A DNA stretch of 37,921 nucleotides, taken from a virus. Taxonomy: Duplodnaviria; Heunggongvirae; Uroviricota; Caudoviricetes. The position numbers were made by a program, and so were the translations under genes. Shown here piece by piece: positions 32,523 through 35,072 of this stretch. The notes under the pieces are model-generated. The model was not told the origin of the DNA and searched no databases. It was given only the letters and a program-made list of their open reading frames with translations. Within the stretch, counting starts at the first letter, position 1, and each line of letters starts with the position of its first letter. The stretch is taken from IMG/VR virus record IMGVR_UViG_2713896908_000005. The stretch is one strand, 5' to 3'.

Positions 32523-33155
32523 ATGCATCGTATAGACACGAAAACCGCGCAGAAGGATAAGTTCGGCGCGGGTAAGAACGGTTTTACCCGTGGTAACCCC
32601 CAGACCGGCACACCTGCCACCGATCTGGATGATGACTACTTTGACATGTTGCAGGAAGAACTTTGTAGCGTGGTGGAGGCCTCCGGTGCCAGCCTGGAGA
32701 AGGAGCGGCACGACCAGTTGCTTACCGCGCTTCGTGCGCTGCTGTTAAGCCGCAAGAATCCGTTTGGTGATATCAAATCGGATGGTACGGTGAAAACGGC
32801 TCTCGAAAACCTTGGTTTGGGAGAAGCCAGATATGTCATTCAGCGAGGAGCTAATGCCAATGGTGCATGGATACGCTGGTCAGATGGTGCAATAGAAGTA
32901 TTTGGAACCGGTGGATCTAATGATAATGGACTGGCTAAAGTTGTTTACCCAATTGCACTGCCTAAACTTTCACGTTTTATCAGTATCGCGGAAAGAATAA
33001 GAACGGATTACGAGAGCACACCTAATAATGTTCACGTTTCAATGATCGTGGATGATCAGGTAACAAATACCGGCTTTTATGCCCGCTGCCAGATGTACGA
33101 CGGCAGACCATCATCAAATGCTTTTTCCTGGAGGGTTTATTGTGCGCCTGTTTAA
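32523..33155 (+). CDS. tail fibre protein (constant N-terminal part fused to a short C-terminal segment in the current orientation)
   Basis: 210 aa, Gly/Asn/Thr-rich; same size and position as the e14 side tail fibre gene as recalled; ends at the boundary of the putative invertible segment. Confidence 0.7.
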
Positions 33156-33339
33156 TCCAGTTACTTTGACTGAAGTAATCCCCGGTCTTCATGACGTGAC
33201 CGGGGCTATTGAATTACCGGAGGACAACTGGTTTTTTACTATGACAGAAATTCCTCAGGGCATGGAGCTAACAATTAATGAGAAAGGCGAACCAATACTA
33301 ATTGAGGTTAATCAGTCTCAGGGAATACAGGCCAAATAA
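33142..33339 (+). CDS. short tail-fibre-assembly-like ORF in the current orientation (65 aa)
   Basis: GTG start with GGAGGG SD 7 nt upstream; overlaps the 3-prime end of the opposite-strand tfa gene; function uncertain. Confidence 0.35.
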
Positions 33340-33916
33340 TATCAGGCGCGGTGCTGGTATCTGTTGCCGTCACTGCGTCAATGTAATTCAGCACCGTGTT
33401 AAGTCGGTTGGTTTCTGCCTGCGTCAGACTCCGTCCGGCCTGTAATTTCAGTTGAATCAGATTGATGGAAGCCATTGCAGTATCCATCAGCGACTGGCGC
33501 TGTGCTTCTGCTGCATCTACTGCGGCGCTATGCTGTGCCTCGGTATCCGTCACCCATTTCTCACCATTCCATTTATCGTATGGCGTTAACGGGGCGATAG
33601 TGGTTGTATTATCAGGGTAATCCCCCGGAGCTGTGATTTCTTTTGATTCTCCCGTTTCGGTGTTATAGACAACTTCACCGCGATGGTCTGGCACATATTC
33701 CCATGAGTTAAAATCTGCCGAACGGCAGATTGCATAACCAGCCTTATGTGTGCCAGGAGCATCTAAACAGGAATATGCGGGGATACCGACACCCACAGCA
33801 AGATATTCAATTGATGCAGAAATATACTCCCGTGTCTCACTGTCATAGTTATAAACGGTAATCTCTCCTGCCTTTGTGGCAATAAATTTATTATTTAAGA
33901 TGGCGTTATACATCAT
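33308..33916 (-). CDS. tail fibre assembly protein (Tfa), inverted-orientation cassette
   Basis: 202 aa; C-terminus [15 protein letters not shown] parallels the conserved lambda Tfa end (TSTAPDIEWPAVPVME) as recalled. Confidence 0.75.
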   Translation of the reverse strand: MMYNAILNNKFIATKAGEITVYNYDSETREYISASIEYLAVGVGIPAYSCLDAPGTHKAGYAICRSADFNSWEYVPDHRGEVVYNTETGESKEITAPGDYPDNTTTIAPLTPYDKWNGEKWVTDTEAQHSAAVDAAEAQRQSLMDTAMASINLIQLKLQAGRSLTQAETNRLNTVLNYIDAVTATDTSTAPDIIWPVFPETD

Positions 33917-34491
33917 GCAGCCCTCACAATGTAATTAAATGAAATATTACGTGGGCGTGTCTCTGCTGCACCGACAATACTGGTACTCAACCCCGTTGCC
34001 GTTCGTTTGTTATTTTTATTTCCTTCAATCAAACAGTTGTAATCATCATTACCAATTAACGAATTGGTGGCATCAATACTGTCCGGGGACAAGGCATTAG
34101 TTGTGGAACTTAAAGTCAGCATCTCGTCTGAACTTGGAAGATTTTTTAATGGTGTTTCATTGCGTGAAATACCCGCGTAAAAAAAGGACTCATGTCTGTG
34201 AGCTTCAAAAGAGTCATCCTGAAGACTTAGCAAGGCTCGCCCCGCATCCACTCCACGTCCATCATCCCAGCCACGAATAAATTCACCGCGTAAATCAGGC
34301 AATTTATTGGTCGGGTAAGCCTTTGCCAGTTCCGGGTATTCTTCAGCAGAAAAAGCCGCACCATTGCATTTCAGCCAGCCTGTTGGCGGAGTGGCTGAAG
34401 GCCACGGAACAGGCACCCCAACCGGTAATGCAGAGCCTTCTCCTAAACCAACGTTTATGAAAATGCAGAAATAACGAGCAAATGGCATCAT
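33913..34491 (-). CDS. alternative tail fibre C-terminal (variable) cassette, inverted orientation; lacks an independent start
   Basis: ORF runs through the hix-like crossover site (34438-34463) toward pin; Gly/Pro-rich fibre-tip-like sequence; would be fused to the constant fibre gene after inversion. Confidence 0.55.
   Translation of the reverse strand: MMPFARYFCIFINVGLGEGSALPVGVPVPWPSATPPTGWLKCNGAAFSAEEYPELAKAYPTNKLPDLRGEFIRGWDDGRGVDAGRALLSLQDDSFEAHRHESFFYAGISRNETPLKNLPSSDEMLTLSSTTNALSPDSIDATNSLIGNDDYNCLIEGNKNNKRTATGLSTSIVGAAETRPRNISFNYIVRAA
34438..34463. promoter_or_regulatory. hix/gix-like 26-bp recombination site for the Pin invertase
   Basis: TTCTCCTAAACC AA CGTTTATGAAAA: matches the Hin/Gin-family site pattern TTxTCxxAAACC-NN-GGTTTxxGAxAA at most positions; lies just upstream of the invertase gene inside the alternative fibre cassette. 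Confidence 0.6.
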
Positions 34492-34517
34492 TCCTGCTTT
34501 TGTCAGGGAGATCTACC

Positions 34518-35072
34518 ATGCTTATTGGTTATGTACGTGTGTCAACAAATGACCAGAACACAGATCTACAACGTAATGCGCTGAACTGTGCAGGATGCGA
34601 GCTGATTTTTGAAGACAAGATAAGCGGTACAAAGTCCGAAAGGCCGGGACTGAAAAAACTGCTCAGGACATTATCGGCAGGTGATACTCTGGTTGTCTGG
34701 AAGCTGGATCGGCTGGGGCGTAGTATGCGGCATCTGGTCATTCTGGTTGAGGAGTTGCGCGAACGTGGCGTTAATTTTCGCAGCCTGACGGATGCTATTG
34801 ATACCAGCACACCGATGGGGCGTTTTTTCTTTCATGTGATGGGTGCCCTGGCTGAAATGGAACGAGAACTGATTGTTGAACGAACAAAAGCTGGACTGGA
34901 AGCTGCTCGCGCACAGGGACGAATTGGTGGACGTCGCCCCAAACTTACACCAGAACAATGGGCGCAGGCCGGGCGATTAATTGCATCAGGCGTTCCTCGC
35001 CAGAAGGTGGCGATCATCTATGATGTTGGTATATCGACACTGTATAAGAAGTTTCCGGTCGGAGATAAATGA
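34518..35072 (+). CDS. pin: DNA invertase (Pin/Gin/Hin family serine recombinase)
   Basis: Start at ATG 34518 (GGGAG SD); MLIGYVRVSTNDQNTDLQRNAL... with catalytic Ser in VRVSTNDQ and C-terminal HTH; 184 aa. Confidence 0.9.
   Translation: MLIGYVRVSTNDQNTDLQRNALNCAGCELIFEDKISGTKSERPGLKKLLRTLSAGDTLVVWKLDRLGRSMRHLVILVEELRERGVNFRSLTDAIDTSTPMGRFFFHVMGALAEMERELIVERTKAGLEAARAQGRIGGRRPKLTPEQWAQAGRLIASGVPRQKVAIIYDVGISTLYKKFPVGDK

Follow-up and report, generated by a model that had tools for sequence, protein, structure and literature searches.

The stretch of DNA analysed here (the window, 37,921 nucleotides) very probably carries a structurally complete e14-type P invertible segment in an SfV-like myovirus prophage. 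The tail-fibre switch is itself an already known, ordinary system of the e14/Mu type. It has two recombination sites, in inverted orientation and with matching cores, in-frame fibre fusions both ways and an intact invertase. Relatives carry the segment in both orientations, with breakpoints at the sites. Sites, cassettes and invertase bear out the original prediction of an e14 or Mu G-type invertible tail-fibre segment with a Pin invertase. Its further claim, that only one recombination site is intact, does not stand. A clean partner site is present at 32800..32825 and is identical, at 26/26 positions, to the left P-segment site of e14 in Escherichia coli K-12. The features of the locus are listed in Table 1.

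Table 1. Features of the invertible tail-fibre segment and its surroundings (positions are those of the window).
Feature	Position	Strand	Basis or detail
Tail-fibre gene	32523..33155	+	ORF; 210 residues, constant and forward variable part
Constant N-terminal part, Sc	32523..32825	+	residues 1-101, ends ..ENLGLGE; StfP/SfV comparison
Left site (pixL/hix-like)	32800..32825	.	CTCTCGAAAACCTTGGTTTGGGAGAA; pattern scan and inverted repeat I2
Left-site halves and core	core 32812-32813		CTCTCGAAAACC TT GGTTTGGGAGAA
Forward variable cassette, Sv	32826..33155	+	residues 102-210 (109 aa); ORF 32523..33155
65-aa ORF of forward cassette	33142..33339	+	PHROG 5400 (function not assigned), E=1.4e-25
Tail-fibre assembly gene, TfaE-like, 202 aa	33308..33916	-	Pfam Caudo_TAP E=1.3e-31
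Reverse variable cassette Sv', StfE-like	33913..34437	-	Pfam Phage Tail Collar E=1.6e-15
Pin-proximal ORF	33913..34491	-	ORF list
Right site (pixR/hix-like)	34438..34463	.	TTCTCCTAAACCAACGTTTATGAAAA; pattern scan
Right-site halves and core	core 34450-34451		TTCTCCTAAACC AA CGTTTATGAAAA
Start and short leader of pin-proximal ORF	34464..34491	-	MMPFARYFCIFIN..; conserved with K-12
pin, serine DNA invertase, 184 aa	34518..35072	+	Pfam Resolvase E=8.9e-52, HTH_7 E=5e-13
Putative Fis-dependent recombinational enhancer	34539..34735	.	position inferred, 5' part of pin

Recombination sites were identified using a degenerate 26-bp invertase-site pattern with 18 specified consensus positions. We used 100 shuffles as the control. 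Exactly two matches were found in the 37.9-kb window, where 0.00 were expected by shuffling. Left and right sites each score 17/18 consensus positions. They are inverted relative to each other, agree at 20/26 positions when so aligned and both read AA (AA/TT) in the core of the aligned strand. Applied to Mu, the same pattern recovers gixL and gixR precisely at the annotated ends of the G segment. The right site, already recognised as hix-like in the original prediction, is real by this control. It lies 54 bp upstream of the pin ATG and aligns with Mu gixR. Compared with the right site of K-12 e14, 25/26 positions are identical. The lone difference, a C to T change at position 7 of the inner half-site, is synonymous (TTG to TTA) and is also present in E. 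coli AL.H8. The next-best 26-mer in the segment, at 33647, was rejected as an extra internal site; it scores 12/18 and has no AAACC block. Inversion systems with multiple sites do exist, for example Min of p15B.

The left site falls inside the fibre gene. It covers codons 93-101 (..ALENLGLGE), at the constant/variable junction, and overlaps a published K-12 inverted repeat, TTGGTTTGGGAGAAGG (PMC12529663). Positions of the K-12 sites were taken from the same paper and verified on the K-12 sequence. The published inverted repeats map onto the K-12 sites, exactly the published 1797 bp apart. In our window, homology to the segments of other prophages starts at ~32801-32809 and homology to SfV stops at 32827. 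Hence, the left site is a module boundary.

Sc is near-identical to the corresponding parts of K-12 StfP and SfV orf21. The likeness ends directly after LGLGE. Residues 1-108 of the fibre are matched by PHROG tail-fibre families. Sc is expressed with whichever variable cassette adjoins it. Currently, Sv is fused to Sc and is therefore the expressed fibre tip. Sv is weakly similar to the C-terminal part of K-12 StfP. Its gene is annotated in E. coli AL.H8 and is found flipped, adjoining pin, in 70 genomes. The forward variable part had been described as very short, because the left boundary was misplaced. At 109 aa its size is like that of K-12 StfP, and an ORF of 65 aa lies downstream. The 65-aa ORF occupies the position of a fibre-assembly gene (tfaP in K-12). 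It has no similarity to TfaP, and no match to it was found in Pfam or PADLOC. In AL.H8, ECOR29 and STEC1575 it is annotated as a hypothetical protein. The forward cassette is nearly absent from the sequenced-phage collection. The one match, partial and 70% identical, is in the P2-like phage S164, where a homologue of the 65-aa ORF adjoins a recombinase.

As first proposed, opposite-strand tfa and fibre C-terminal cassettes lie between the fibre gene and pin; Pfam matches support both. The encoded Tfa is 86% identical to K-12 TfaE and is silent in the present orientation. Sv' is near-identical to K-12 StfE over its N-terminal ~90 aa and mosaic beyond. Inversion in silico of 32814..34449, between the two cores, generated an in-frame fibre of 275 aa, ..ENLGLGEGSALPVG..IVRAA*, followed by Tfa. 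Open frames thus result in both orientations, an architecture of the Mu G / P1 C / e14 P type of phage tail-fibre segment. The pin-proximal ORF starts outside the segment and reads into the cassette beside pin, equivalent to the 'stfE' or 'stfE2' frame of K-12. Its leader is conserved with the K-12 counterpart, MPFACYFFIFINVGLGE.

Pin is full length. Ser9, in the motif VRVSTNDQ, is conserved with PinE and Gin. In its size, resolvase domain, C-terminal HTH and Ser9, the protein corresponds to the Hin/Gin/Cin/Pin (Din) invertases. Comparison with the Gin invertase structure 3uj3 gave E=9.5e-94. Pin is 95% identical to K-12 PinE; the 9 substitutions are conservative, and none affects an invariant catalytic residue. 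The proteins of ECOR29 and STEC1575, which adjoin the flipped state of the segment, are 99% identical. Conservation of the gene is uneven. Relative to K-12 pinE, there are 2 mismatches in 34542..34735 and ~40 in the rest of the gene. Several stretches of the 5' part are invariant even compared with Mu gin, third codon positions included. In hin and gin, the recombinational enhancer has been located (see references in PMC3798978). A scan of the 5' region of pin for pairs of Fis motifs returned many weak G-N13-C candidates with 46-50 bp spacing. The scan was not discriminating and, for this reason, the enhancer is given as putative.

The same four-cassette segment is present, flipped, in E. coli ECOR29 and STEC1575. 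The alignments to them break in 32807..32826 and in 34437..34456, that is, at the sites. We also counted junctions among 5426 complete E. coli genomes. Flipped junctions occurred in 513 genomes on the left and in 70 on the right. Junctions as in the window occurred in 928 on the right and in 5 on the left. Part of the rarity of the latter is an artefact of counting, since in other prophages the cassette follows a different constant region. At the population level, the segment is found in both orientations.

These data suggest the following mechanism. Pin would bind the two inverted 26-bp sites, one in the fibre gene and one upstream of pin. Cleavage at the AA/TT dinucleotide in the middle of each would allow the intervening ~1.64 kb, from core to core, to be inverted. 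By analogy with Hin and Gin, the reaction would need Fis and the enhancer in the 5' part of pin. Inversion would join the 101-residue constant fibre N-terminus, in frame, to either of two C-terminal parts, which presumably bind receptors. In the present state, the fibre would carry the forward Sv (109 aa), partnered by the 65-aa ORF. In the alternative state, it would carry the StfE-like collar-domain Sv' with a TfaE-type chaperone. The expected outcome, as with the G segment of Mu and the C segment of P1, is switching of host range. For the source strain the segment is known from one assembled orientation, and the intact parts suggest that it does invert there.

We recommend annotating the locus as an intact rather than a decayed Pin/P-segment tail-fibre switch, and giving its sites as 32800..32825 and 34438..34463. 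Either orientation may appear in assemblies of the source strain. Depending on which one does, the fibre gene may wrongly be called a pseudogene or a short 'hypothetical protein'. Beyond correct annotation, the finding is of little consequence. The prophage looks complete and is therefore a candidate working model for e14-type host-range switching; the defective e14 of K-12 gives no phage phenotype to study.

The P invertible segment and PinE of the cryptic K-12 prophage e14 were reportedly described by Plasterk and van de Putte in 1985 and by Mehta et al. in 2004. Gene order is the same in e14 and here: ymfQ, the fibre gene (Sc and Sv), a small partner gene, tfaE', stfE' and pin. The two sites and the 54-bp gap between the right site and the pin ATG are also shared. 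Pin and TfaE are orthologous; Sc is near-identical, as is StfE over its initial ~90 aa. However, the cassettes differ. Here the forward Sv has weak similarity to the StfP tip, an unrelated 65-aa ORF replaces TfaP and distal StfE is mosaic. The K-12 cassette pair, StfP tip with TfaP and StfE with TfaE, is not matched in this segment. The inverted repeats are ~1608 bp apart, compared with 1797 bp in K-12. Furthermore, e14 is defective and sits at icd, whereas the prophage described here is apparently complete and has a thrW-type att site. As cargo after pin, e14 has mcrA, and the present element has an HNH-like ORF. On these comparisons, the locus is best described as a cassette variant of the e14 P system, shared with AL.H8, ECOR29 and STEC1575. 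Inversion in K-12 e14 has been demonstrated experimentally (PMC4272514, PMC12529663).

The same layout is seen in Mu, with its G segment and Gin, and in P1, with its C segment and Cin. Within the fibre gene S, the left site lies where Sc meets Sv; two Sv-U cassettes are opposed and the right site is 54 bp upstream of the invertase. The Mu sites fit the same 26-bp pattern but differ in sequence, with a TC/GA core in place of AA/TT. The Mu cassettes are unrelated in sequence and much longer (~3 kb compared with ~1.6 kb here). The constant part of the fibre is ~170 aa in Mu and 101 aa here. For the rest of the window, the closest sequenced phage is SfV of Shigella flexneri. The two are colinear and ~98% identical through the structural module, from terminase to baseplate, and over the constant part of the fibre, and SfV orf21 carries the identical 26-bp left-site sequence. 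In contrast, SfV has a fixed fibre tip and tfa, followed by gtr, int and xis, and lacks a second site, opposed cassettes and an invertase. Scans of 32000..37921 at the Rfam gathering threshold gave no match, and ARAGORN found no complete tRNA. PADLOC gave no match for the HNH-like ORF or the 138-aa ORF.

The flip could instead serve mainly in host defence. If so, the pin-proximal ORF, starting at 34491 with the leader MMPFARYFCIFINVGLGE, would yield a free fibre tip from whichever cassette adjoins pin, and this protein would mask receptors against other phages. K-12 has a conserved counterpart of the leader ORF, and inversion of the P segment there is reported to create StfE2, which blocks adsorption of T2 (Kirigo et al. 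2025, PMC12529663). We consider defence unlikely as the main role. The prophage that carries the segment is SfV-like and apparently complete, and its structural module is colinear with and 98% identical to that of an active phage; hence, the classical fibre-switch role is available. Since the K-12 StfP tip and the forward cassette here are different, the StfE2 result is not simply transferable. In addition, a promoter and terminator scan of 32400..35400 gave nothing above shuffled expectation, so no signal for expression was found. A combined role, also suggested by analogy with K-12, is quite unlikely: besides changing the virion fibre tip, the flip would switch the cassette translated from the 34491 start, and the free tip would mask receptors against competing phages. 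If true, this would involve a different cassette pair in a prophage that, unlike e14, still looks viable.

A working tail-fibre switch remains our reading. A switch with all its parts intact but effectively locked in the source strain is very unlikely. Such a frozen ancestral orientation might result from unexpressed Pin, a Pin substitution or the C to T change in the right site. Consistent with this, comparison with background identified no clear sigma-70 promoter upstream of pin, and only 5 genomes have the left junction of the window. However, that count is lowered in part by the artefact described above. Furthermore, PinE of ECOR29 and STEC1575, 99% identical to Pin, sits beside the flipped state, and the substitutions relative to K-12 are of the conservative kind already noted. 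The K-12 P segment is also flipped in trans by Pin-family invertases of other prophages (PMC12529663).

The original prediction placed the left partner at 33120..33146 and suggested that, with this site degenerate or 3 bp short and the right site alone intact, the segment was fossilised in one orientation or used a divergent left site. The second-site question was decided by DNA comparisons. The stretch at 33120..33146 is indeed a poor match, with <=8/18 consensus positions in every register and on both strands. However, it is not where the site lies; the clean site, with its 17 consensus positions, is ~320 bases further left and is not divergent. Fossilisation is extremely improbable: a clean second site was found elsewhere, as the prediction itself had named as refuting, and the left sites of Mu and K-12 e14 also lie where the constant and variable parts of the fibre gene meet. 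Comparison with homologous prophages points the same way, since relatives are flipped with breakpoints at exactly both sites, on the left at 32807..32826 and not near 33120.

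The region between the fibre gene and the invertase is very probably an intact Pin-mediated tail-fibre switch, with the forward tip expressed at present. Consistent with the original prediction, opposed tail-fibre assembly (Tfa) and fibre C-terminal cassettes are present between these genes, as identified by the domains listed in the table. The system is not new. It is the known P-segment system of E. coli K-12 prophage e14, and the cassette variant already occurs in RefSeq genomes with a pinE annotation. An extra defence role via the pin-proximal ORF (start 34491) is possible; by analogy, this ORF corresponds to K-12 stfE/stfE2, with the leader conserved (PMC12529663). 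That a switch intact in its parts is yet locked in this strain seems improbable.

Genes of the invertible segment and adjoining invertase
Feature	Coordinates	Strand	Identified by
Fibre gene	32523..33155	+	ORF
65-aa ORF	33142..33339	+	ORF
Tail-fibre assembly gene (Tfa)	33308..33916	-	Caudo_TAP
Fibre C-terminal cassette	33913..34491	-	tail-collar domain
Serine invertase pin, 184 aa	34518..35072	+	Resolvase + HTH_7 domains

Recombination sites were sought across the entire 37.9-kb window using a degenerate 26-bp invertase-site pattern, TTNTCNNAAACCNNNGTTTNNGANAA, with up to two mismatches. Exactly two loci fit; shuffles expect 0.00. One is the right site predicted at 34438..34463, TTCTCCTAAACCAACGTTTATGAAAA, which is real. 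The other is a clean left site inside the fibre gene (32800..32825; CTCTCGAAAACCTTGGTTTGGGAGAA), so the claim that only one site is intact does not hold. The partner proposed at 33120..33146 was rejected, since no register there matches more than 8 of the 18 specified positions. As a control, the same pattern was run on Mu, where it located gixL and gixR precisely at the G-segment ends given in the annotation. Independently, a repeat finder paired the left and right sites as inverted repeat I2 (90% over 20 nt). The minus strand of the left site is TTCTCCCAAACC AA GGTTTTCGAGAG; the right site is TTCTCCTAAACC AA CGTTTATGAAAA. The two are alike at 20 of 26 positions and have the central AA in common. 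This arrangement is what a Hin-family invertase requires for religation after inversion.

The left site spans codons 93-101 of the fibre gene (..ALENLGLGE) and its final base is that of codon 101. Up to residue 101, the fibre is near-identical to K-12 StfP and to orf21 of Shigella flexneri phage SfV; divergence begins right after. Hence, the forward variable part comprises residues 102-210. These 109 aa, previously described as very short, are not so: the variable part in K-12 StfP, a protein of 209 aa, is comparable. In-silico inversion of 32814..34449 fused the StfE-like cassette in frame to the constant part, giving a 275-aa product (..ENLGLGEGSALPVGVPVPWPS..IVRAA*). Tfa comes next, overlapping at ATGA. 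The sole change that inversion makes within the site, TTG to TTA, is synonymous.

Pin is full length, with 95% identity to K-12 PinE and 99% to ECOR29 PinE. Only conservative differences occur, and Ser9 is preserved along with the motif around it. The protein also matches Gin invertase structures 3uj3 and 4m6f (E~1e-93). In hin and gin, the 5' part of the gene itself contains the Fis-dependent enhancer (references in PMC3798978). Between pin and K-12 pinE there are 2 mismatches in 34542..34735 and ~40 over the remainder (34736..35072). Several stretches of the 5' region are invariant even compared with Mu gin. This conservation is consistent with an embedded cis element, a putative Fis-dependent enhancer. 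The uneven divergence could stem from such an enhancer or from a breakpoint of recombination within pin.

The left site is identical at 26/26 positions to that of K-12 e14 (NC_000913 region; comparison sequence L004, 4779..4804) and the right site at 25/26 (L004 6606..6631). In the window, K-12 and Mu alike, 54 bp separate the right site from the invertase ATG. Kirigo et al. 2025 described inverted repeats TTGGTTTGGGAGAAGG and CCTTCTCCCAAACCAA on either side of the 1797-bp K-12 P segment, whose inversion was shown by experiment (PMC12529663). On L004 they fall at 4791-4806 and 6604-6619, separated by exactly 1797 bp, and therefore lie within the sites identified here. Their counterparts in the window, each with a single mismatch, are at 32812-32827 and 34436-34451. 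K-12 cultures hold both P orientations together, as seen by sequencing and PCR (Goldberg et al. 2014, PMC4272514).

Orientation was assessed in 5426 complete E. coli genomes using 400 nt queries centred on each junction, counted if at least 80% aligned in one place. The flipped state was found in 513 genomes at the left junction (constant part with the reverse cassette, Sv') and in 70 at the right (forward cassette, Sv, adjoining pin). The window's own state was found in 928 genomes at the right junction (Sv' adjoining pin). Its left junction (constant part with Sv) was found in 5. That figure is too low, since the segment also occurs in other prophages with another constant region in front; their matches start at window ~32801-32809. 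E. coli AL.H8 is oriented like the window (97.6% identity). The four cassettes also occur, reversed, in ECOR29 and STEC1575, flanked by the same ymfQ/fibre and pinE genes. The alignment of these two with the window is colinear to 32826, inverted over 32807..34456 and colinear from 34437. Hence, their breakpoints are within both sites. Together with the clean left site, these flipped relatives refute the suggestion of a single-site segment fossilised in one orientation.

The 65-aa ORF stands where an assembly gene would be expected in the forward cassette. It shows no relation to either TfaP or Caudo_TAP, and shares 32 nt with the 3' end of the tfa gene opposite. It matches PHROG 5400 (unknown function) at the first 66/145 positions only, and a homologue in P2-like phage S164 adjoins a recombinase and tfa gene. 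Possible readings are a new small chaperone for the fibre and a truncated gene. In the StfE-like cassette, the distal half (33970..34257) has no counterpart at the nucleotide level in ECOR29/STEC1575 and encodes protein divergent from K-12 StfE, while both cassette ends are conserved. This pattern indicates a mosaic exchange of the part presumed to bind the receptor, in a cassette that is conserved elsewhere.

The window is an SfV-like myovirus prophage, its terminase-to-baseplate module being colinear with that of SfV (~98% identity). Unlike the window, SfV has a fixed fibre tip and lacks an invertase and opposed cassettes. However, its fibre gene, orf21, has an orphan left-site copy (NC_003444 16948..16973; 26/26 identical). 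Homology to SfV stops at 32827, at the end of the left site, and homologous segments in other E. coli prophages begin at ~32801-32809. Thus, the site coincides with a mosaic module boundary.

Directly downstream of pin is a low-GC (30-35%) cargo slot (35073..36590). Here, a 262-aa ORF (35426..36214, minus strand) shows weak HNH_5 similarity that falls short of the Pfam cut-off (E=4e-5) and gives no match in PADLOC. The slot holds mcrA in K-12 e14, a LEM-3-like GIY-YIG protein in STEC1575, and differing hypothetical proteins in AL.H8 and ECOR29. It resembles a variable hotspot for nuclease/defence morons. The adjacent 36591..36767 is 94% identical to the SfV gtrA-int interval (attP region) and ends in a tRNA-like 3' part (36730..36760, ..GGTCGTAGGTTCGACTCCTATTATCGCACCA); ARAGORN found no complete tRNA in this region. 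Matches in other E. coli genomes likewise end at 36767. This block is probably attR, the prophage right end, at a thrW-type site. Outside the prophage, a 98-nt direct repeat (37689..37786 and 37824..37921; 93% identity, 135-nt spacing) reaches the window end and encodes, on the minus strand, a repeated proline-rich peptide, MAEYIPPAP.RPAPPPPVLNGA...
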